IMG/VR virus record: IMGVR_UViG_3300030104_001024
Coordinates: 1-52,739 of that record
DNA from: a virus
Lineage: Duplodnaviria > Caudoviricetes
Strand: one strand, 5' to 3'
Length of the DNA: 52,739 nt
Shown here: in pieces, positions 20,350 to 45,300 of the stretch
Numbering within the stretch: the stretch's first letter is position 1
Layout: every line of letters starts with the position of its first letter
The notes under the pieces: model-generated
Told to the model about the DNA's origin: nothing
Seen by the model: only the letters and a program-made list of their open reading frames with translations
The model's database searches: none
Translations under genes and position numbers: made by a program

Positions 20350-20428
20350 TTGGCTTTTTCTTCTGTACTGCTACTACTGTTAAACTCATTATGGGTACTG
20401 CGGTCACTTTTTTCTTCTTTTTTGTCAT
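20315..20428 (-). CDS. 37-aa very basic peptide
   Basis: Manual: MTKKKKKVTAVPIMSLTVVAVQKKKPNGKKKRVPKKG; ATGA coupling to the upstream gene; fills the gap. Confidence 0.5.
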   Translation of the reverse strand: MTKKKKKVTAVPIMSLTVVAVQKKKPNGKKKRVPKKG

Positions 20429-20646
20429 TTCTTTGCCCTGTTTACCCTTTTACTTACTACTCTTAGGTTAGAACGGCTATTATTTCGTGGGTTTTTGTCT
20501 ATATGGTCTATATCTTTGCCATCACCCTTGCGAACTGCTCCTGTTTTTAGCATTCTGCGTCTAACTTTGTTGCGAGAAGCCCTATTCTTCTTTTCATTGG
20601 GCTTTGCACCGCTAAGTGCGTACTCTCTTTTGTAGTTTCTAACCAC
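20425..20646 (-). CDS. Small HNH-endonuclease-like protein
   Basis: GDGKDIDH...N...NLRVVS...NR. Confidence 0.7.
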   Translation of the reverse strand: MVRNYKREYALSGAKPNEKKNRASRNKVRRRMLKTGAVRKGDGKDIDHIDKNPRNNSRSNLRVVSKRVNRAKK

Positions 20647-22683: not shown

Positions 22684-22907
22684 CGTTCTTCCCTCTCCAT
22701 TCTTGTTGGCTCTGACTTCTCCGCATTCATCCATATGGCGAAACTGCCTGTCATCGCTCCTGTAATCACTGATATAAGCCCTGCCTGTTGTGTCGTCAAC
22801 TCTGGCTGACTCAAAGCCCATTCGATACAGCGTATATAAACTCCTGTCATCGTCAGCATCATTAGTCGTGGGAGTATTCTCCATCTATCTAGCATCTCTG
22901 GTGTCAT
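22680..22907 (-). CDS. Two-TM membrane protein (holin-like)
   Basis: LDRWRILPRLMM followed by two hydrophobic helices. Confidence 0.55.
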   Translation of the reverse strand: MTPEMLDRWRILPRLMMLTMTGVYIRCIEWALSQPELTTQQAGLISVITGAMTGSFAIWMNAEKSEPTRMEREER

Positions 22908-23166
22908 ATGAGCAGTAGCCTCTTGGTCTTTCAGGGTCTAAAACGTCATGCTTGTCGAGGTGTCCCTCTAAAAACAAGGCACGTTCTACGTGGTCTAGGG
23001 AGTAAAGGTTTCCAGTCTTTGCATAGATGGCTTGACGGATATAGAAGACATCTGATTTAGGAATATGAAGTCTTTGAGCCTTGTTTGGGTTATTTTCACT
23101 GATAGCTTCGTAGAACTCTTCGAGAACATTATCAGATGAATATAGTTTTACTTTATTTTTACTCAT
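22885..23166 (-). CDS. Hypothetical protein, first gene of the late operon
   Basis: ORF track; downstream of the promoter at 23302-23330. Confidence 0.55.
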   Translation of the reverse strand: MSKNKVKLYSSDNVLEEFYEAISENNPNKAQRLHIPKSDVFYIRQAIYAKTGNLYSLDHVERALFLEGHLDKHDVLDPERPRGYCSYDTRDAR

Positions 23167-23301
23167 TGTCAATAGTTAATTTAGGTAGGAAGGGAATATT
23201 ATTATTATATATGGGGGAGTCTTAACATATTGTTATAACTATTATTATGTATATATTATATATGTTATAACTAGGTGTTTCAACTAAGAAGTCTTAACTT
23301 A

Positions 23302-23330
23302 GTTATACCATGTTTTTCACCTCCTGTCAA
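23302..23330 (-). promoter_or_regulatory. Sigma70-like leftward promoter
   Basis: TTGACA-N17-TATAAC with an extended TGn; shares TATAACTAA with the capsid promoter. Confidence 0.7.
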
Positions 23331-23643
23331 GTCAAAAAAACCACTTCTGTGTATTTGTACATATATACTAACTGGATATGGGGGGGTGTCCCACGCACTA
23401 TCACGCCCCGGAAAAAAGGGTGGGCAAAAATTACCAGAAAATGCGTGTGTATATTTTGGGAATAGTATTTTTAAAAAGCGGTAGGAATATAGGTATAAAT
23501 TATTGATTTATCTACCTTTATAAACTGATTAGTTATTAGTTGAGTCTGAAATATAACCATAAAAAGCGGTATCGTACCGACTCCAATGCAGACTCTAAAA
23601 ATATCTACAAAGGGACACTAGCGACTCCAAATATATCTATTAA

Positions 23644-23772
23644 AAATAAATAGTCTTCATGCAGTCGAAATAAATAGTCTTCATGCAGTCGAAATAAATA
23701 GTCTTCATGCAGTCGAAATAAATAGTCTTCATGCAGTCGAAATAAATAGTCTTCATGCAGTCGAAATAAATA
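23644..23772. repeat. Perfect 24-bp tandem repeat, 5 copies plus 9 bp
   Basis: (AAATAAATAGTCTTCATGCAGTCG)x5 then AAATAAATA. Confidence 0.97.
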
Positions 23773-23785
23773 ATTTATAAAAAAC

Positions 23786-23814
23786 TAGACTTTATTGTTA
23801 ATTTTTGAGAGAAT
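23786..23814 (+). promoter_or_regulatory. Possible early promoter
   Basis: TAGACT-N17-GAGAAT right after the tandem array. Confidence 0.4.
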
Positions 23815-23875
23815 GGTTGAAACAAACCAGATTCTCCTATTTTTGGCGAATCACTAAATATAAGGAAACGTAAAA

Positions 23876-24313
23876 ATGAATATAACAACTACACAAATAA
23901 ACACCGCAATTTCTACCGCTACTATTAACGGAAATTTCAATTCAGATCTTATTGAGAATGTAAAACTTAAAAAATTAGCTATTCAAGAATACATAAACCG
24001 CATTGCGGAATCTGGTGAGTCTTCTGTTTTAAATGATTATCAAAAACCTATTGAATCCCAAACTGCGACTCCGCTTGACTCTTCTACTGTTATTATTGGA
24101 GGTAAAACCGCTTTGATTATTGAGAAAAGTCAAGATTACATTTTAGCAAAATTTGATAGTCCTACTTTTTCCGATAAGGCATATTTTACAATATCATATG
24201 TTGAGGGGAAATATATAGATGAAGAAAACAAAGGTATATCATTTTTTAGCGGTCATTACGATCTTGACCTAACAACCGCTATTAATGATTTTAATAAAAG
24301 AATTGGTAAGTAA
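23876..24313 (+). CDS. Early hypothetical protein
   Basis: ORF track; TAAGGA RBS. Confidence 0.6.
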   Translation: MNITTTQINTAISTATINGNFNSDLIENVKLKKLAIQEYINRIAESGESSVLNDYQKPIESQTATPLDSSTVIIGGKTALIIEKSQDYILAKFDSPTFSDKAYFTISYVEGKYIDEENKGISFFSGHYDLDLTTAINDFNKRIGK

Positions 24314-24364
24314 AGATTATTCGAGTTTAACAAAAACCGCATATAAACCATATTGGAGGTAAAC

Positions 24365-24712
24365 ATGCAAAATTTAGACATAAACGCAATTCACAATAAA
24401 GAAGTTAAAAATCTTATTGAAGTAAGAAATAATACTTCAGATTTGGCAAAATTCATTTTTGATTTTTTAGAATTAAAAGGCATTGAACCATACAGAGTCC
24501 GCATTAATGACAAGACTCAAGAAGACTCTATTTACCTAACTTCTGGCGGTAAATCAAAGGAGGGATTTCTAGTTGTAAGAATTGGAAACCGAGTCAATTA
24601 CTACGCAAACTATTCCAGAAATGGCGGTACTAGAACTTATGATTATCTAGTACAGAAACAGCGCAAGTTGACGAATGGAAAGAGAATAACAACTGTTATC
24701 ACTCAACAATAA
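24365..24712 (+). CDS. Early hypothetical protein
   Basis: GGAGGT RBS before the ATG at 24365. Confidence 0.6.
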   Translation: MQNLDINAIHNKEVKNLIEVRNNTSDLAKFIFDFLELKGIEPYRVRINDKTQEDSIYLTSGGKSKEGFLVVRIGNRVNYYANYSRNGGTRTYDYLVQKQRKLTNGKRITTVITQQ

Positions 24713-24722
24713 ATTTAAACAA

Positions 24723-24751
24723 GCGGAGTCTGGTGCAATGCTAGACTCCGC
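24723..24751. other. Intergenic hairpin with a GAGTC/GACTC stem
   Basis: GCGGAGTCTGG-tgcaatg-CTAGACTCCGC; no U-tract on the plus strand. Confidence 0.7.
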
Positions 24752-24777
24752 CAATAATAAAAAATGAGGAAACAAAA

Positions 24778-25026
24778 ATGTTAAATAAAAATATTTGTAA
24801 AACTTGTTATTCTTACAATCCAAGAATTAAGTTTATAACAGACTCAAGAAAAGTTTGTTTTTATAATGATGAATATAATATTGATTGTATGGTTGATTAT
24901 AAAAAATATGATTATCACGATATGACCAATAACAAAATAAAAGCTTATTGTTTAGACACTCAACAAAACATTATTATTAATGGCAGTTTGTTCAATGTCT
25001 CTGAAACTTGGAGGATTCAAAAATGA
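24778..25026 (+). CDS. Early hypothetical protein
   Basis: ORF track; GAGG RBS; CxxC. Confidence 0.55.
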   Translation: MLNKNICKTCYSYNPRIKFITDSRKVCFYNDEYNIDCMVDYKKYDYHDMTNNKIKAYCLDTQQNIIINGSLFNVSETWRIQK

Positions 25027-25118
25027 TTATTGAAACAATAAAATGTATTATCTTTGTAGTTATACCTACTAGCATATTACTTTTAATACCAGAACAACCG
25101 CTATTAATTGGAGTTTAA
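25023..25118 (+). CDS. 31-aa membrane peptide
   Basis: Manual: MIIETIKCIIFVVIPTSILLLIPEQPLLIGV; GGAGG RBS. Confidence 0.5.
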   Translation: MIIETIKCIIFVVIPTSILLLIPEQPLLIGV

Positions 25119-25121
25119 ACA

Positions 25122-25307
25122 ATGGAATATTTTTTTAATAACTTAGATTCTTATCTTTTAATTTATGCAACCATAATTACAGTAATGATTTTATTTATGA
25201 TTATATTTGTGATTGTTGATTATATTAAATTAATGACTCCATTTTGGGAAATAGAAAAAAGATATAAAAAAGAATTAGAACAACTTAGAAAAACAAGGAG
25301 TCTATAA
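25122..25307 (+). CDS. Single-TM membrane protein
   Basis: ORF track; GGAG RBS. Confidence 0.55.
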   Translation: MEYFFNNLDSYLLIYATIITVMILFMIIFVIVDYIKLMTPFWEIEKRYKKELEQLRKTRSL

Positions 25308-26029
25308 TGCCTTTAGATAATACAACATTAAATAATTTCTATATAAAACATAATGTAAATTTAGATTTTTATGAATGGTTAGAAAAAAAAGGTAGAAAGA
25401 TATTTGAGAAAATCGGATTCTTAAAGGTTCATATTTCAAAAGGTTCTGGCAAGCTATTAGATATAGATTCTATCTCAACTAATACTTTAACGAATGAATT
25501 TTGTAAAAAACAACATACCAAACAAACTGATACAATCTGTAAAAATTGTTATTCATTCGCTTTGTTGTTAGGTATGCGCAAAAATATGCAAGAATGTTTA
25601 GAAAGAAATTCGCAACTATTAAGCGAGTCATTACTACCAGAGTCAGTATTACCATTAATAATGCAAAAATATTTAAGAATTGCGAGTCATGGTGAAAATA
25701 TAAATATGACACACGTCATGAATATTTTTAATATTATACACAAGAATCCTACAACAATATTTGCTTATTGGACAAAAAGAACCGATTTAATAAATGAATA
25801 TTTTAGACATTTTGAAAAACCTAGTAATGTAATTATGGTTTATTCGAATCCTAAAAAGAATCATATATTGAAAAAGATTCCGAAAAACTTTAACAAGGTT
25901 TTTAATAACGTACATAAAGACAAGTTTATTGAACAACAAAACTGTACAGGTCAAAAATGTAGAGATTGTTTAGCTTGTTATAATTTTAATACAGAGAATA
26001 TTATAGTTGAAAAGGTCAAAAATTATTAA
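25307..26029 (+). CDS. GP88-like Cys-rich (radical-SAM-like) protein
   Basis: C..(x11)..CxxCY, LRIASHGE, YWTKR, C-terminal CxxxxCxxCxxCY. Confidence 0.6.
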   Translation: MPLDNTTLNNFYIKHNVNLDFYEWLEKKGRKIFEKIGFLKVHISKGSGKLLDIDSISTNTLTNEFCKKQHTKQTDTICKNCYSFALLLGMRKNMQECLERNSQLLSESLLPESVLPLIMQKYLRIASHGENINMTHVMNIFNIIHKNPTTIFAYWTKRTDLINEYFRHFEKPSNVIMVYSNPKKNHILKKIPKNFNKVFNNVHKDKFIEQQNCTGQKCRDCLACYNFNTENIIVEKVKNY

Positions 26030-26049
26030 GAGTCGTTTCCTCCAAACTA

Positions 26050-26090
26050 GGCGAGTCGATAACCACCAAGACTCGCCACTTTTTTTCTTC
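26050..26090 (+). terminator. Intrinsic terminator ending the first early operon
   Basis: GGCGAGTC...GACTCGCC stem followed by a T-run. Confidence 0.75.
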
Positions 26091-26108
26091 TGAAAAAATT
26101 TGAGAGGT

Positions 26109-26205
26109 TTACTATCATCATGGATAGGGTAGGGTGCGACTTGGAAAGTTTGATAAAAACAAAAATTATGGCAAATTACTATCATAAGATAGGGTAGGGT
26201 AGGGT
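26109..26205. repeat. Direct repeat TTACTATCAT-N-GAT(AGGGT)n
   Basis: Copies at 26109 (two AGGGT units) and 26176 (three AGGGT units). Confidence 0.85.
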
Positions 26206-26219
26206 TCGAGAAATAAAAC

Positions 26220-26249
26220 TTGACCGAATCATTTAAAGTAGAGTAAAAC
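26220..26249 (+). promoter_or_regulatory. Possible promoter for the second early operon
   Basis: TTGACC-N18-TAAAAC with GAATC abutting the -35 element. Confidence 0.4.
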
Positions 26250-26283
26250 TAATTATAGATAATTTATTATAGGAGCAAAACAA

Positions 26284-26664
26284 ATGCTAGACAGACCAGA
26301 AATAAAAAACATGAGAAAAGAACTTGAACAACTACTAAACAAGTATAGTTCTGAAATAACCAAGTATGACATAGAATTGATGCAGGGTGGTTCATTCACA
26401 GAAACAGAAATGACCTTTAAGTTAGCTATGCGGTTAAAGGGTGGTGAAAGTCAATTACAAGTTGACCTAATACGTTTCTCGGCTCTTGACAATGTAGACA
26501 CCACCAAGATTGCAGACATACGAGGTACTAAATATAGTCTTGTAGGGTATAAAAGATCAGCTAGAGTTAGACCATACATTGCACAAAATTTACAAGACAA
26601 CAAACATTATGTATTTACCGAAGAACAAGCTAAAGAGCATTTTGGCAAGGGAGAGGTAGCATAA
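26284..26664 (+). CDS. Hypothetical protein
   Basis: ORF track; AGGAG RBS. Confidence 0.6.
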   Translation: MLDRPEIKNMRKELEQLLNKYSSEITKYDIELMQGGSFTETEMTFKLAMRLKGGESQLQVDLIRFSALDNVDTTKIADIRGTKYSLVGYKRSARVRPYIAQNLQDNKHYVFTEEQAKEHFGKGEVA

Positions 26665-26798
26665 TGGAATGGAAATATATAGTTTGGGTAGGTGGTGTAG
26701 ATGATTATTACACTACCTATGAGAGGGCAAAAGAGCATTATGACGAATGGATTGAACAAGGTTATGATGACGTAATTTTAGAGGAGATAACACAATGA
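26664..26798 (+). CDS. 44-aa acidic/aromatic protein
   Basis: Manual: MEWKYIVWVGGVDDYYTTYERAKEHYDEWIEQGYDDVILEEITQ; coupled to both neighbours. Confidence 0.55.
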   Translation: MEWKYIVWVGGVDDYYTTYERAKEHYDEWIEQGYDDVILEEITQ

Positions 26799-27166
26799 GA
26801 GCAATACTTATAGACCCAAAGCATAAACAGATAATGCAAATAGACTACAATGGAGATTATAAGACTATCTATGAGCACCTAAGTTTTACCAATTCGCTTG
26901 GCAATTCACATAAAATACGAGCCTTTGACATTGTGCGAATACCTGTAGGTAATGATGGCATATATGTAGATGACGAGGGATTGTATGCACCAAATGAGGA
27001 CAAGCATTGGTTTACCTACCGCTACAATGCCCATGAGATGCACCAGAATATACCGCTAGTAAACAGAGGTTTAATTATTGGTTGTGATGATAATGGAGAT
27101 AGTGTAGACTGTGATTCGACAGTTGATTCGATTAAATCGCAGATAACATGGGGATTAGTGAGATGA
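26795..27166 (+). CDS. DUF3846-like protein
   Basis: IYVDDEGL motif. Confidence 0.55.
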   Translation: MRAILIDPKHKQIMQIDYNGDYKTIYEHLSFTNSLGNSHKIRAFDIVRIPVGNDGIYVDDEGLYAPNEDKHWFTYRYNAHEMHQNIPLVNRGLIIGCDDNGDSVDCDSTVDSIKSQITWGLVR

Positions 27167-27681
27167 ATAGATTTATTATAGATTATGATGTCGTCAGCAT
27201 TGCACAATCATTATGTGACCAACATATTGTAAAGATGCCATTGGAAGAATCGCAGATGTTATGTACTGCTTTATGGCATCACGCACCAGACTACGCAGAG
27301 GAGAATAATCTATATAAACCTGTTCATCAAAAACACCCTTGTACACTATGGGCTATGCACAGTAGAGATAACTATGAGTTTGCTTGGAATTTATACTTTG
27401 CCATGTGTCAAGAGTATAGATTAAGATATAATAGATTTCATGGTTGTGGTAAGCATGAAGATGCACTAAGACCAAGTAGAGTAAAACATTTTTTACCAGA
27501 TTTGGGATTAACAAAACACCCACAATGCTTTAGCGGACATGATGATCTAAAGACAGATGAATTTATGCCAGTAAATGCCTATCGTAAGTTTTATTATGTA
27601 GACAAAATGCGATTCGCTAGGTATAACAAATGTAGACATATGCCACATTGGTTAAATGAAATGAGGGTTGATTATGCCTAA
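27163..27681 (+). CDS. Pyrimidine-dimer DNA glycosylase (DenV-like family)
   Basis: LCDQHIVKMPLE..QML.TA, H..HPCT.W, EY..RY...H. Confidence 0.7.
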   Translation: MNRFIIDYDVVSIAQSLCDQHIVKMPLEESQMLCTALWHHAPDYAEENNLYKPVHQKHPCTLWAMHSRDNYEFAWNLYFAMCQEYRLRYNRFHGCGKHEDALRPSRVKHFLPDLGLTKHPQCFSGHDDLKTDEFMPVNAYRKFYYVDKMRFARYNKCRHMPHWLNEMRVDYA

Positions 27682-27865
27682 AACATATTATAAAAAAGTA
27701 AAGACTCCAAAGCCTAGAAATCCAGAGTTTATTCGTAAGAGTACACAAATCATAGAGGACAAGCGACACAAGGAGCAACAACGTAGACACGAGAAGAGAG
27801 AGCTTGACCTAAAGAGGTGGAGAGCAGAATATGAAAAATCAAAAGGAGTTAAAGATAATGAGTAA
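27674..27865 (+). CDS. Small basic hypothetical protein
   Basis: ORF track; KPRNP motif. Confidence 0.5.
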   Translation: MPKTYYKKVKTPKPRNPEFIRKSTQIIEDKRHKEQQRRHEKRELDLKRWRAEYEKSKGVKDNE

Positions 27866-28028
27866 AACAATAGCAAGTGCTGAACACACAGAAAAGGTAA
27901 ACGATTTAACTATAAGTGATATACTTCAGATGAATAACGAAAACATAATACCTACTGACATTGTAGATAAATTGTATTATCATTTGTTGGATAGCAACAA
28001 AGTAAGAGAGGAGTTGAAAGATGAATAA
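27858..28028 (+). CDS. Hypothetical protein
   Basis: AGGAG RBS before the ATG at 27858. Confidence 0.5.
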   Translation: MSKTIASAEHTEKVNDLTISDILQMNNENIIPTDIVDKLYYHLLDSNKVREELKDE

Positions 28029-28158
28029 GGAAGATAAAATAAAATTTATAATTGAGTGTGAAAAGAACGCAGTTCCACCAAATAGTTGGGAATGGATTCA
28101 ATTAGCAGATGACAAAACTATTAATGAGTTATACGATTATTGGACACAAGAACTGTAG
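28021..28158 (+). CDS. 45-aa hypothetical protein
   Basis: Manual: MNKEDKIKFIIECEKNAVPPNSWEW...; GAGGAG RBS. Confidence 0.5.
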   Translation: MNKEDKIKFIIECEKNAVPPNSWEWIQLADDKTINELYDYWTQEL

Positions 28159-28171
28159 AGGAGTTGAAAGA

Positions 28172-28351
28172 ATGACATATATACTAGCACAGTTAAACTT
28201 TGTAAAAGTAGATGACGAGGGTAATGAAGAAACAGATAGCAAGGGTAACGTAATAACTTATGTTCCAAAAGGTAGGTGGAAAGAGTTAGAATACCTTTGT
28301 GAAGATAGAAATGATGATGACTTTGAAGTGGAGAAAACAGATGAAAGCTAG
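28172..28351 (+). CDS. Hypothetical protein
   Basis: GAGGAG RBS before the ATG at 28172. Confidence 0.5.
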   Translation: MTYILAQLNFVKVDDEGNEETDSKGNVITYVPKGRWKELEYLCEDRNDDDFEVEKTDES

Positions 28352-28535
28352 AGAATTAATAGAAAAGATTATGAAGTTAGATGACCTTAATACAGAGATA
28401 GATTTTAGGAAGTTTTTTAGTGATGGAGAAGATAAAGATTTACTTTTAGATTTCTGTCATATATTCTATCCAGATGCAGAGGATAAAGATAACGATAGAT
28501 TTATAATAGGTTTCAAGGAGAGAACAGATGTATAA
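28341..28535 (+). CDS. Hypothetical protein
   Basis: GGAG RBS; MKARELIEKI start typical of small phage genes. Confidence 0.5.
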   Translation: MKARELIEKIMKLDDLNTEIDFRKFFSDGEDKDLLLDFCHIFYPDAEDKDNDRFIIGFKERTDV

Positions 28536-29562
28536 AACAGTAGCAAGTTTCTTTGATGGGTTTTCTGGTACAATGCTTTCACTAGACAAGCTAGGTATCA
28601 CACCAGAAGAATACCATGCCTTTGAAATTGACCCTTATTCAAGTGCAGTTAGTCGCTACAACTATCCTAACATTATTCGTCATGGTGATGCACGAAATTG
28701 GGAAGTGTTAAAGGGTAAGAAGATTGACCTCTTGGTTGCAGGATTTCCATGCCAAAGCTACTCAGTTGCAGGGTTGCAGAAGTTTCAACAAGACCCAAGA
28801 GATATGTCAAAGGTATTACTTGATGCTCTCAAAGGTTTAGACGTAGATAAGGTTCTTATTGAAAATGTTGCATCTATGCCAAGGGTTTGGAAAGATTATT
28901 TTACTGAGATGTTTCAACGTATATTTCCAGACGTACTATGCCACGAGGTAAACAGTTCAGTAGTGTCTGCTCAATCTCGTAAGCGATTATATTGGACAAA
29001 CATTGACTTTGACTTAATGTCAGATAAGGGAATAGTAATGAATGATATCCTTGAAGATGGTGCAATCGCAGACAGAGATAAATCCTATTGCCTAGATGCT
29101 AATTACTTCAAGGGCGGTAGCATGAAGATGTACTACGAGAAAGCTAGGAGACAGATAGTATATGATGATAAAGGTAAGGTTGGTTGTAAACAAGTAGGTG
29201 AGGCAGACATCAAAGGCTATGACATTATTCGCAGAGTTTATAGCAGATATGGTAAAGCACCATCACTTACAACCATGCAAGGAGGTCACAGAGAACCAAA
29301 GGTTGAGTGTCGTAATTGGGAGAATATAAATCCAGAGGAGTTTTTCTGGAGAGCATTAACACCTCTTGAATGTGAGAGGTTGCAAACTGTTCCAGATGGG
29401 TACACTCAATATGGTGACATGGGTGGCGAGCAGTTTGATAAAGATGGTAACTTTATTCGTTACACAACAAAGCCAATTAGTAATTCACAGAGATATAAGA
29501 TGCTTGGTAATGGTTTCACAGTTGATGTTATATCTCACATATTAAAAGGAGTAGAGGAATGA
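28528..29562 (+). CDS. C5-cytosine DNA methyltransferase
   Basis: FFDGFSG (motif I), GFPCQ (IV), IENV (VI), QSRKR (VIII), LTPLECERLQ (IX), LGNG (X). Confidence 0.9.
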   Translation: MYKTVASFFDGFSGTMLSLDKLGITPEEYHAFEIDPYSSAVSRYNYPNIIRHGDARNWEVLKGKKIDLLVAGFPCQSYSVAGLQKFQQDPRDMSKVLLDALKGLDVDKVLIENVASMPRVWKDYFTEMFQRIFPDVLCHEVNSSVVSAQSRKRLYWTNIDFDLMSDKGIVMNDILEDGAIADRDKSYCLDANYFKGGSMKMYYEKARRQIVYDDKGKVGCKQVGEADIKGYDIIRRVYSRYGKAPSLTTMQGGHREPKVECRNWENINPEEFFWRALTPLECERLQTVPDGYTQYGDMGGEQFDKDGNFIRYTTKPISNSQRYKMLGNGFTVDVISHILKGVEE

Positions 29563-42332: not shown

Positions 42333-45300
42333 CTACTTCGTTGTTCTCTTAATGTAGTCGTCACTACTATCCATATAAGCCTCTAATAACTCTAGTTGGT
42401 CATAGCTGAGGTTATCGTAGTCACCTTCCATGTCTATGTTCTTCATAGCCTTACGTATATCTCCATCCTTATACTTCGTATTCAAACTATAAAGTTTTTC
42501 TAACTGCCTGTCCTCTATAATTACAGAACTCTTCATGGAGTCTTTCGTATTCTTCTTCGCTAATTCTAATATTCTGTCTACCTTTTGTTTTTTCTCATTA
42601 GTTGATAAATCTTTAAATCCTTTACTTAACATCAAACTCTTAGCTCTATCTTCTAAGAAGTAAAATATTCTTTGGTTTAAAGCTGAATCAGCCTCTGGTA
42701 CACCCCCAAAAAAACCAACCCTCCAATTAGATCTACCAATAGAATTAAACATTCTCTCCGTATAGCTCTGTTTACCTATCTCTCTGTAACCTACAACTTT
42801 GGTAAATTGAGAGGGTTTAGATATATCTGTTGTGGCACTCTTCTTTTCAGGTGGATTTTCAAGGGCAAGTAAATTTTGGAATATTTCATCCACATATCTA
42901 AAGCTATTATTAAGAACTTTATTGCCCTGTCTCCTGTCTACGTTTACATAATTCTCTCCCTCCATAAACCCTAAAAATTGATTTATTGGGTCAAGTGGTC
43001 TTGTTAGACCTGCACTTACAGTTGTAACAGCCTCTCCAGTTACTGCACCAACAGCATTCATAATACCCTCAATGTCTCCCATTTCAAGACCAATAGCTAT
43101 ATTACCTATTCCTCTTTCGTACACACCTAAACTTCTGTCTACCTGACCTAGACCAAACACATCCCAAAATACTCTTTTTAAATCTTGTGGTGTTTCCTCT
43201 CCTCTAGTCTTATGTGCGACTATTCGAGCAGTGTATTTAAACAAAGAAGCAGGAAAGTCATATTGTTTAGTTACCGTTTCTCCTCCTGAACCTTTTTCTT
43301 GATCCCAAGAGAGTCCTTGATCTATGTATTTTTCTTCTTGTCGAGATAAATAACCTACATAGCTCAACCCTATAGCTCCTTTTATGATACTTTCAACTAC
43401 ATCACCTTCTTGATAAGTTCGTTTACTAAACTTTTCCATTTGAGCTAAAAATTCTTCTGTTAATTCAGCGTTATAACCATTCTCCTCATTAAACTGTTTC
43501 AGCATTTTCTCTTTTATTTTTTCTTGCTTATAATAACCAACTCTATTCCATATTTTTGCAGGAGCATTTAAACCAGAGTAATCTGCAAAAAAAGCCACAG
43601 TGTTATTAAAGAATTGTCCAAATGGTAGAACCAGACCAAATAAAGGAAAACGTCTAGCTTCTTCTATAAGGTAAGCCCCTTTTGCAATGTACCCTGCTTC
43701 TTTTGACATATTACCATACTTTTTACCAAATACAGCTTTTAGAGTGTCATCAACGGCTCTGCTTTCTAGGGCTATATATTCCTTTGTAGGCATTAACTCT
43801 TCCATTCTACCAGAGTTAATGAAATCATCATAAGACATATTATACTGAGTTCGTATTCTCTTATCAATATTGTACATAAATTCTATAGATTTAGTAAGAA
43901 CATCTTGAGCTTGAACACCATAAAGTGCCTGAAAGAAATTTGTGGTTTTTTCACCTGTTCTAAAAAACACATTTTCCATTGGGTCAAAGCCCAAATCTTT
44001 TATCATTTCTTTACTATCTACACCACCTGAAATATAACGCATAAGTTTATCCTGTACGTCAGGTCTAACAGCTAAGTAGTCTGTAAAATCATTGTAGGTG
44101 CTCTCAGGGTCGAGTACGTTACGAAGCTTGTCTTTCTGTAAGCTAAACAAAAGTTTAGCCTTCTGTATAGAATTTGTAGCATTTGCTGTTTTGCCCACTG
44201 CAGACTCAAAAAAAGCTTGAGGGACATAGAGGGAGGCTTTAATAAAATCTGTTATAGATTGCATTACAGTGTAGTTTGACCACCCTATTATGTTTAACGC
44301 AGACGTACCGGGGTTTGTAACTAAACTTCTAATTACATTTCTTTGCACGTAGTCTACACGCTTTCTTGTAGCTGTTAAATAGTCATCTGCCATCAAAGGT
44401 TTAAGAGCTTCCTCCATAGTTTTTGAAGCTTTAGGTGTCTCAATTTTCCCCCTAGCACCTAATGCTTTTGCAACAGGACTAAATAATCTAAGACCTCTAC
44501 CTTGCAAACTGGCATAAGAGGAGAAGTAGCCAGAGAAAAATTCCATAATCTCTTCATCTTCTATTTTTGCTCCTTCAGGTATCCCCCTTTCTTTCATATA
44601 CTCTTTTAAGGCTCTGTTGTAGTCAGGTAGTCTCTTTCTAACATCCGCTTTATTTAACGTGGCAAGAAATTTTCCCATGTCTCTTGGGTTCATTTGTGAT
44701 ACAATGTCAGCTAAAAATTTAGCAGGTTTACCCTCAAAGTTTGCCTCTAAATAATCATCTGTTATACGTACTCCATTTTCTTTAAGATTGTGAACTAACC
44801 CTTGTACACCTAGTTCATCATTTCCCCAGATAAATGTTTTAAAGAAATCATATTCTGCGTAGGAGTCTGTAGGACCTAAAAATTCTCTAACAAGTTTTCC
44901 CTGTGCTTCCTTTTCCTTCATAGTTAAGGACACACCTTTTTGTAACAAATCCCCAAGCGGTGTCAGAGTTACATCTAGATTCTTAGTAGCTTGTTCTACC
45001 CTTATCTGTTTCTCTGCCCTAAGTTTCTCATATATTTGTTTATCCTCACGGCTCAACTTTTTTGATAATACAGTATATGCAGGTGCTACTATACCTGAAA
45101 AAGCAGCTAAACCAGTTTGTATCTGGCTGTACTCCTCTTGTCTCATAGATTTTATCATACCACTTTGATACGCAAGGTCTATGCCCACAGATACCCCCAT
45201 ATCTGTAACTCCTGCGGTGGCTAATTCTTTACCTATTCTTTTCTTACCCTCTTGTTCAGCGAAGTCTTGCATACCCTTTTTAACAAAGTATCTCTCTGCT

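Follow-up and report, generated by a model that had tools for sequence, protein, structure and literature searches.

Why should a phage genome that is poor in the word GANTC (N, any base) crowd that word into one short stretch beside a divergent pair of operons? The question is posed by IMG/VR record IMGVR_UViG_3300030104_001024, a whole record of a marine phage (Duplodnaviria; Caudoviricetes) of 52,739 bases, which CheckV rates at 97% completeness and which lacks terminal repeats; we analysed it in full and refer to as the window. A preliminary description of its sequence had noted about 35 GANTC sites in roughly 2.7 kb and had suggested that this segment is first-entering DNA carrying host methylation marks, either recruiting the sigma-70 cofactor GcrA with RNA polymerase or making the DNA look like self. 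Here we report that this GANTC island is selected at the codon level, that the homologous region of related phages is either dense in the word, nearly emptied of it or at background, and that the dense state keeps company with a phage gene for a putative N6-adenine DNA methyltransferase. The island is probably an N6-methyladenine (m6A) label coupled to that phage enzyme.

The window contains 119 GANTC sites, of which 35 lie at 23542–26230 (about 13 per kb). This recount agrees exactly with the preliminary figure, and the comparison counts given with it, 6 in 26240–28500 and 7 in 1–2000, are reproduced. Against zero-order composition, 23500–26240 holds 35 sites where 7.0 are expected (5.0x), whereas the roughly 50 kb of the window outside this segment hold 84 where 177.2 are expected (0.47x). 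None of 100 dinucleotide shuffles of the whole window fell below 119 sites, their mean being 165.6, and the genome is thus GANTC-depleted overall; 2,000 dinucleotide shuffles of the segment gave a mean of 7.25 (standard deviation 2.54) and a maximum of 18, against the 35 observed. Under a first-order Markov model, GAGTC/GACTC stands at 11.7x and GAATC/GATTC at 2.3x in the segment; elsewhere in the window the two pairs stand at 0.56x and 0.48x. Among the 16 palindromic words of the form XXNXX, GANTC alone stands out in the segment.

The five open reading frames (ORFs) of the island carry 23 of the sites. Synonymous shuffles made within each ORF yielded 12.06 ± 2.06 sites with a maximum of 20, and a second control, resampling from pooled codon usage, yielded 11.61 ± 2.06; none of 5,000 replicates reached 23 in either case. 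The mean of the synonymous shuffles itself exceeds the compositional expectation, indicating that amino-acid choice (Asp/Glu–Ser pairs) and codon choice both contribute. Non-coding island DNA holds the other 12 sites in 786 bases, and the two densities are about equal, at 11.8 per kb in coding and 15.3 per kb in non-coding DNA. Shuffling of dinucleotides and of synonymous codons thus leaves the excess standing, and the enrichment is both genuine and selected at the codon level. Its right-hand limit is less abrupt than first described. Density does drop at the boundary formed by a terminator-like hairpin and TAGGG repeats, but the next 1.9 kb (26240–28100, 6 sites) is at about random expectation, and the depleted level typical of the genome is reached only further on. 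The island also differs from its surroundings in composition, with a G+C content of 25–31% against 35–44% elsewhere and an observed/expected CpG ratio of 1.0 where the remaining genome has 0.50.

We compared relatives by aligning them on an anchor, the first leftward gene (22885..23172, minus strand, 95 amino acids (aa)), with all sequences turned to the orientation of the window. A search of viral contigs with the anchor matched 422 relatives, 80 of which were kept, and GANTC was counted from +250 to +2750 bases beyond the anchor. Thirty-six loci were long enough, 33 of them non-redundant with the window included, and several of the counts come from incomplete metagenome contigs. With limits of at least 2x for dense and at most 0.3x for void, the loci fall into three states:

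Dense state, 11 loci: 300 sites against 74.1 expected, 4.05x; flanks 0.43x
Void state, 16 loci: 10 sites against 123.6 expected, 0.08x; flanks 0.50x
Mid state, 6 loci: 24 sites against 55.5 expected, 0.43x; flanks 0.49x

The island thus recurs outside the window, with 11 of 33 non-redundant loci in the dense state. Emptiness is equally marked, the void count having a Poisson probability of 6e-16 at the flank rate. Among cultured phages, the first 4 kb hold no GANTC in CRP-2 and 9 in HMO-2011. A tree of the 95-aa anchor protein, weak at 91 columns, requires three or more changes to account for the dense state and places the dense clade of the window as sister to a void clade.

Diverged homologues separate the density of the word from the position of its sites. 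Island proteins are 24–38% identical between clades (24–35% for the gene of a 119-aa protein, 36–38% between the two types of a 240-aa gene), and the alignment of the 240-aa gene has just one column with a site in both gene types. That density is kept while site positions turn over argues that density itself is selected. Two void genomes have, at the corresponding position, homologues of the 240-aa gene with 52–56% identity to that of the window and with no GANTC at all. Where the window encodes Ser-Glu-Ser as AGC GAG TCA a void homologue uses AGT GAG AGT, and for Tyr-Ser-Asn-Pro the codons are TAT TCG AAT CCT in the window and TAT AGT AAT CCT in the void homologue. The same residues are thus written with different codons in dense and empty homologues, indicating that the word is selected for in some lineages and against in others at the same place. 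Judged by these alignments, the dense loci do not represent one block in several copies. Separately, GANTC depletion in the Pelagibacter phage HTVC115P eases along the infection programme: the first 7 kb carry no site, although about 15 are expected in the first 6 kb alone, the replication module has 11 sites where 33 are expected, and the structural module has 75 where 94.5 are expected.

The enriched word is exactly GANTC. Pooled over the 11 dense loci, GAWTC (W, A or T) occurs 132 times against 57.4 expected (2.3x) and GASTC (S, G or C) 203 times against 25.3 (8.0x), while all 12 one-letter variants of GANTC stand at 0.64–0.80x; enzymes of the CcrM/HinfI type have this specificity. The bases flanking island sites are nearly free. 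The commonest island 7-mer, GGAGTCT, partly overlaps ribosome-binding sites, and the second commonest is TGATTCG. Site spacing is near random apart from a single peak at 10 bp (11 against 3.3, z 4.3). A site lattice or phasing was considered and rejected, gaps of 20 bases or less numbering 65 against 58.8 ± 6.1 at random. A bare palindrome with free flanks and no phasing points to a methyltransferase- or restriction-type word rather than an operator.

A candidate writer, which the preliminary description had overlooked, is encoded by the phage itself:

19789–20349, minus strand: putative N6-adenine DNA methyltransferase, 186 aa, in the leftward operon beside an HNH gene at 20425–20646

In a PHROGs scan of the remaining ORFs this protein matches phrog_799, 'DNA methyltransferase', with E 4.9e-30; it has no Pfam match even at E 10. 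The order of its motifs (DFYPTP, EPCAGNG, NPPW) is that of gamma-class N6-adenine enzymes, and NPPW is invariant across 29 aligned homologues. The family has 5,735 homologues at E ≤ 1e-5, typically about 173 aa long and mostly unnamed. Homologues at E ≤ 1e-10 turn up in 39 of 50,697 phage records; 38 of the 39 come from phages that infect Alphaproteobacteria and one from a Microcystis phage. Phages of this host class are known to carry 'CcrM-mimic' enzymes, small orphan N6-adenine methyltransferases with an NPPW/F/Y motif that are unrelated to CcrM. Three 179-aa Paracoccus aminophilus prophage proteins of this kind were reported to methylate GANTC (Dziewit 2014, PMC3925955), as was the 218-aa phiLM21_p027 (Decewicz 2017, PMC5537653); here and below, citations refer to the parts of these papers that were available. 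Comparison by hhalign of a profile of the 29 homologues with phiLM21_p027 gave a probability of 92.8% and E 4e-7 over 106 columns that include the N terminus and both catalytic motifs, so that the 186-aa enzyme appears to be a distant relative of this reported GANTC methylator. The available parts of the CcrM-mimic papers (PMC3925955, PMC5537653, PMC7139368) report no cis-acting cluster of sites, and describe the purpose of these enzymes as still to be elucidated (Decewicz 2017, PMC5537653; Decewicz 2020, PMC7139368); for the window enzyme, unlike theirs, specificity is a prediction from sequence.

The methyltransferase gene tracks the island across relatives. Searching whole records with the 186-aa protein found the gene in 6 of 10 dense records (the window, L003, L004, L012, L014 and L027). 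The four misses (L005, L006, L010 and L019) are 41–54% complete, and their contig ranges fall short of the position of the gene in their clade; the gene is present in all four dense records of 90% completeness or more, and in six of six island-bearing records that cover its expected place. None of 10 non-dense records carries it (L008, L009, L024, L029, L041, L043, L063, CRP-2, HMO-2011 and the unrelated pelagiphage HTVC115P). The leftward operon carries the gene, 2.8 kb from its start, in the window, L004 and L007; in L012, L014 and L027 it is found about 19–20 kb down the rightward operon. With two gene positions and about 58% protein identity, the association of enzyme and island holds across both arrangements. 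In lineages without the enzyme, the same patch has been cleared far below the genome background (0.08x against 0.50x).

The cultured siphophage CRP-6, which infects Rhodobacteraceae strain FZCC0042 (a Roseobacter RCA strain) and is not HMO-2011-type, provides an independent case of the pair. Its gp24 belongs to the same enzyme family (50% identity), and its genome carries 38 GANTC at 42433–44882 (2.45 kb) where about 10 are expected, with 31 against 164 (0.19x) in the rest. GAWTC (19/5.4) and GASTC (19/4.8) are equally enriched. The G+C content of this island is 0.47, so low G+C is not part of the phenomenon. Its coding part holds 21 sites against 10.7 ± 2.0 in synonymous shuffles, none of 3,000 of which reached 21. 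Like that of the window, the CRP-6 island stands at a divergent junction, covering the first small ORFs of one arm and 0.6 kb of non-coding DNA. The enzyme is found without an island in Caulobacter phage RW (GANTC 59/208), Labrenzia phage vB_LagS-V1 (30/142) and Rhizobium phage RHph_N3_2 (58/160). An island therefore implies the enzyme, while the enzyme also occurs without an island. In phage RW (L093, 8593–9123) the enzyme homologue is located between two pieces annotated as large terminase; this site and the neighbouring HNH gene in the window, which resembles homing endonucleases, suggest that the small methyltransferase gene may travel as a mobile cassette.

The island occupies a defined position in the transcriptional layout of the window, in which genes run leftward from 23172 (lysis, packaging and structure) and rightward from 23876:

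23173..23875, no strand: divergent control region between the leftward genes and the island operon; carries the first six GANTC (from 23542)
23378–23404, no strand: G+C-rich box of 27 bases in AT-rich non-coding DNA, identical in an alignment of the window and L004–L006
23542..26230, no strand: GANTC island, 35 sites in 2.7 kb
23644–23772, no strand: perfect tandem repeat, 5.4 x 24 bp, in the divergent region; strain-specific
23876..24313, plus strand: island ORF 1, 145 aa, 5 GANTC
24353..24712, plus strand: island ORF 2, 119 aa (115 aa from the ATG at 24365), 4 GANTC
24723–24751, no strand: predicted hairpin with GANTC in each arm
24778..25026, plus strand: island ORF 3, 82 aa
25122..25307, plus strand: island ORF 4, 61 aa, one hydrophobic helix, 3 GANTC
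25307..26029, plus strand: island ORF 5, 240 aa, Cys-rich, 9 GANTC
26050..26090, plus strand: intrinsic-terminator-like hairpin (stem-loop 26050–26077), an 8-bp stem made from two GANTC sites, then a T-run
26109..26249, plus strand: twice-repeated element with terminal TAGGG repeats, then a promoter-like site; start of the next operon
26220–26249, plus strand: the promoter-like site, with TTGACC as −35 at 26220–26225, GAATC at 26226–26230 and a −10-like hexamer near 26243–26249

The anatomy given in the preliminary description, with GANTC in the stems of hairpins at 24723 and 26050 and a site abutting a −35, is located as it stated. The terminator is kept in all four loci of the subclade of the window, where compensatory changes in the stem preserve both GANTC sites, and it is predicted to close the island operon. 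The promoter-like site with its abutting GANTC is likewise kept in all four; its GAATC reads TGATTCG on the opposite strand and adjoins TTGACC directly. The second operon, which follows this site, comprises conserved early and replication genes. The TAGGG-repeat element directly upstream may bind a regulator of that operon. A general promoter scan found 20 sites against 20.8 in shuffles and is uninformative in such AT-rich DNA; the same scan overlooked the 26050 terminator, the loop of which is above its size limit. An Rfam scan gave one sub-threshold chance match (SCARNA4, 27 bits against a gathering score of 60), and the window has no tRNA gene. Where the divergent region of the window has the 24-bp tandem repeat, relatives from two sequencing runs carry 25 different letters. 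The 27-base box could be a pac, att or operator element; a scan of 185,579 species genomes for its 21-base core yielded no exact match.

The island genes are small and largely without known relatives, and none of their proteins scores above the cut-offs in PHROGs, Pfam or PADLOC scans. ORF 1 has no family match in PHROGs or Pfam, and its homologues were found only in L004–L006 (49–59% identity). Homology search turned up no relatives of the 82-aa ORF 3, and a contig in one run, joining 24775 to 25019, is a natural variant without it. ORF 5 has weak matches to GP88 and DUF5131, under both cut-offs, and to two PADLOC candidate families, likewise sub-threshold; homologues of this Cys-rich protein with 49% identity occur in the RCA roseophage CRP-5 (at the record start) and the pelagiphage Greip. 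The 119-aa family of ORF 2 is present in 10 of 13 dense loci and in none of 16 void or 8 mid loci. It has 33 metagenome homologues, unnamed and without a Pfam domain; Atlas matches are to unnamed clusters only. AlphaFold models reached a predicted local distance difference test score of 54 from 9 sequences and 67 from 32, and neither Foldseek (best E 0.5) nor VIA-align (best Z 3.0) gave a usable match. HTVC115P has a weak match to the family (E 5e-3) in its early region, which is free of GANTC.

The remaining genes place this layout in a phage type. The family A DNA polymerase is 57–62% identical to those of six cultured members, CRP-603, CRP-2, CRP-207, CRP-345, HMO-2011 and CRP-1, and a single polymerase protein carries the Pfam domains DNA_pol_A, exonuclease and DnaJ_CXXCXGXG (a partial DnaJ insert). 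Integrase, primase, DnaB, endonuclease I, MazG and ribonucleotide reductase are ordered as in CRP-2. As the preliminary description had also concluded, no RNA polymerase gene is found, either among 74 of the 76 ORFs by Pfam or in the PHROGs scans; nor was a CcrM-family enzyme or a GcrA gene detected in the window. On its polymerase with a DnaJ insert, its gene order and the absence of a detectable RNA polymerase, the window is assigned to the HMO-2011-type podophages, and the segment combines the control region of such a phage with the first operon of its rightward arm, which consists of small ORFan genes and is terminated separately. Relatives of the window's large terminase TerL (the close ones, L086–L088, at 70–76% identity) occur in metagenome-assembled genomes labelled uncultured bacterium, Methanobacteriota archaeon and Blastopirellula, with Clostridia also seen; phage contigs have probably been mis-assigned to these genomes in binning.

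Other words in the window also depart from expectation. GCGGT/ACCGC occurs 11–12 times in the island (23478–25097) against 0.8 expected, or 13x after Markov correction. This excess is limited to the window, L004 and L005 (12–14 against 1) and is found in both orientations. A Chi-like reading of GCGGT/AGCGG was rejected, since AGCGG occurs four times per strand with no orientation bias. Depletion of CCGC outside the island follows from CpG depletion. Outside 23400–26240, on zero-order expectation, CGNCG occurs once against 75 expected, CCNGG 18 times against 75.5 and GGNCC 16 times against 75.5, a far stronger avoidance than that of GANTC. The window also carries a C5-cytosine methyltransferase gene at 28528–29562.

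How would a patch of this kind work? We suggest that the phage enzyme, perhaps together with host CcrM, would methylate progeny DNA ahead of packaging. At the next infection the first operon would enter the cell as a dense m6A patch in a genome otherwise nearly unmarked, and the patch would be read in cis. The favoured reader would be GcrA, the host's sigma-70 cofactor that binds methylated GANTC, with RNA polymerase; it would load polymerase onto the one genome that has entered and so switch on the first operon, and replication products without methylation would lose the signal. We put this whole chain forward tentatively, as a phage-written label (perhaps also host-written) on the first operon that GcrA and RNA polymerase may read in cis. 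Taken by itself, the step in which GcrA–polymerase reads the label for early transcription is possible but doubtful. A fuller version is unlikely, though it can be stated precisely: a self-contained epigenetic switch, in which a fully methylated, kilobase-scale 'landing pad' over the first operon would mark the parental, newly injected genome and recruit GcrA–RNA polymerase or another m6A reader to switch on the pre-early genes, replication would dilute the mark and shut the operon off without a repressor, and lineages lacking the writer would have scrubbed the word.

Several observations favour a label. Enzyme-carrying genomes purge GANTC outside the island (0.43x; 0.19x in CRP-6), which makes restriction protection alone insufficient as an explanation and suggests that the marked word acts as a signal. 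A kilobase-scale patch beside divergent promoters, with no positional order, fits a signal of local density. GcrA travels with RNA polymerase, reads methylated GANTC and in Caulobacter prefers YGAKTCK (Haakonsen 2015, PMC4647560). The CcrM/GcrA promoters of Caulobacter and other Alphaproteobacteria use the same five-letter word, and the island-edge promoter conserved in all four subclade loci has TGATTCG, the top GcrA consensus in Haakonsen 2015 (PMC4647560), abutting its −35. Such promoters, however, have one to a few sites each, whereas here about 35 sites extend over 2.7 kb and five genes, the extended motif is unenriched and the writer is probably a phage enzyme. The preliminary proposal of host methylation marks therefore stands in part: GANTC is a methylation word, but the marks need not be the host's.

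A number of points weigh against the proposal of a phage-written label read by GcrA. YGAKTCK fits 82 of 334 pooled island sites, against a fraction of 0.25 by chance, although this is the preference of Caulobacter GcrA and may differ in the host; GGAGTCT, the commonest island 7-mer, ranks 30th of 32 for the Caulobacter protein. Coding sites are as dense as non-coding ones, which known GcrA promoters do not need, and no GcrA gene is found in the window or in five island-bearing records. The specific link to GcrA drawn in the preliminary description is thus not borne out by motif or placement. GANTC is the presumed target of the 186-aa enzyme from distant homology and family context, the alignment with phiLM21_p027 spanning the catalytic two thirds only (28% identity over 79 aa by BLASTP), and both virion-DNA methylation and the identity of the reader are things that we infer. 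The class limits were chosen after the distribution was seen. The co-occurrence counts are phylogenetically non-independent, the island state having arisen perhaps three or four times, and the enzyme is rejected as a sufficient marker of an island, only one of four cultured carriers having one.

The literature provides a setting for the depleted remainder of these genomes. Pelagiphages are GANTC-depleted genome-wide (Seong 2022, PMC9516812), and so are marine Alphaproteobacteria, in which GANTC is methylated in SAR116 and Rhodobacteraceae while the CcrM homologues of SAR11 are GAWTC-specific (Hiraoka 2022, PMC8919816). The rest of the window (0.47x) and the flanks of relatives (0.43–0.50x) are at about this host-genome level. 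This counts against the suggestion that the island makes the DNA look like self: marine alphaproteobacterial hosts are GANTC-poor (log2 observed/expected about −1.14; Hiraoka 2022, PMC8919816), so that the depleted remainder of the phage resembles the host and the island does not. The available parts of Seong 2022 (PMC9516812) and Hiraoka 2022 (PMC8919816) describe neither a local 4–5x reversal nor a 0.08x early purge, and our literature search found no account of a local GANTC island in the early DNA of phages or of a regional purge there. What is new here is the dense, void or background split of one homologous region, its link to a phage methyltransferase and a cultured example.

Clusters of methylation sites are familiar from other settings. 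The pac site of phage P1 contains a cluster of sites for P1's own Dam methylase; E. coli oriC has GATC clusters associated with Dam and SeqA, and GANTC is found at the Caulobacter origin. P1 pac and oriC resemble the island in that a cluster of methylation sites stands at a methylation-dependent cis element, with P1 also encoding the methylase, but their clusters are 0.15–0.25 kb long, non-coding and built on another word and enzyme class, whereas the island is kilobase-scale and mostly coding. A P1-like account, in which the island surrounds a pac site or genome end and terminase cuts methylated DNA only, has in its favour the combination of a phage methyltransferase with a cluster of its presumed sites, as in P1, the position of the CRP-6 island directly upstream of the small ORF gp65 and terL, and the ends of the metagenome contigs of many relatives, 30–1,400 bases from the anchor gene. 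Deposited relatives also begin there, though genomes were rearranged to a common start gene (Qin 2022, available in part). Contig ends may instead reflect hypervariability of the region, however; the window contig was assembled straight through the island, contigs from 4 of 21 sequencing runs gave no molecule starts or ends, the terL of the window is 6 kb off, and an island of 2.5–4 kb through five genes, mostly coding, sits poorly with pac sites of about 0.1–0.2 kb. We regard methylation-gated packaging as improbable. To replication control, with the island at or beside an origin where the methylation state (full, hemi or none) times initiation as GATC and SeqA do at oriC, we assign only a small chance. 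The island does coincide with the strand switch and the minimum of cumulative GC skew, is AT-rich and contains an iteron-like 24-bp repeat, and phage GANTC methyltransferase genes are usually found beside replication modules, for which a role in replication has been suggested (Decewicz 2017, PMC5537653). But GC skew here tracks the direction of transcription, the repeat is strain-specific and replaced by 25 other letters in relatives, the islands of CRP-6 and L027 are not AT-rich, and sites run evenly through coding DNA, unphased except for the one 10-bp peak.

A third alternative is a role related to restriction. If the island were a protected decoy or sensor for GANTC nucleases, or if self-methylation had lifted the cost of the word and another force had raised it, islands would be expected only where the methyltransferase is present, as is seen. 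The early regions of enzyme-less relatives are also nearly GANTC-free (0.08x; none in the first 7 kb of HTVC115P or the first 4 kb of CRP-2), which fits first-exposed DNA avoiding a nuclease. Relaxed selection, however, would give 1x and not 4–8x, a methylated decoy should not hold a nuclease, enzyme-bearing genomes purge the word elsewhere, and no restriction–modification systems are reported in SAR11, yet pelagiphages deplete GANTC (Seong 2022, PMC9516812); we give this explanation a low probability. A binding array for an island-encoded protein, such as the 119-aa family, with methylation optional, appears very improbable. The presence of that family in 10 of 13 dense loci and 0 of 24 others, and its basic, conserved C-terminal half, are what such an array would lead one to expect, but the co-occurrence may equal shared descent of one cassette. 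The family is also missing from L003 and L027/L028, has no CRP-6 match among the 50,697 phage records and no fold or family match, and its sole cultured-phage match stands in a GANTC-free region. That the island has no function, being a remnant of DNA taken from a donor rich in GANTC or a side effect of base composition or amino-acid usage, we consider negligible in probability. The segment does differ from the rest in G+C (25–31% against 35–44%) and CpG (1.0 against 0.50), but the excess withstands dinucleotide, Markov and synonymous controls, persists at 24–38% protein identity with turnover of sites, and is present where G+C is not low (L027, CRP-6), while homologous genes in void relatives carry no sites.

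If the phage-written m6A label is real, the 'CcrM-mimic' methyltransferases that are widespread in phages of Alphaproteobacteria would gain a function; the enzyme-linked island, together with its emptied counterpart in sister lineages, offers a concrete target for such an orphan activity. The island and enzyme of cultured CRP-6 make the idea testable at the bench. For annotation, the lesson is that maps of local motif density expose phage control regions missed by gene-based methods. For the biology of these viruses, a label of this kind would imply that methylation state is read in the first minutes of infection by some of the most abundant marine phage groups.

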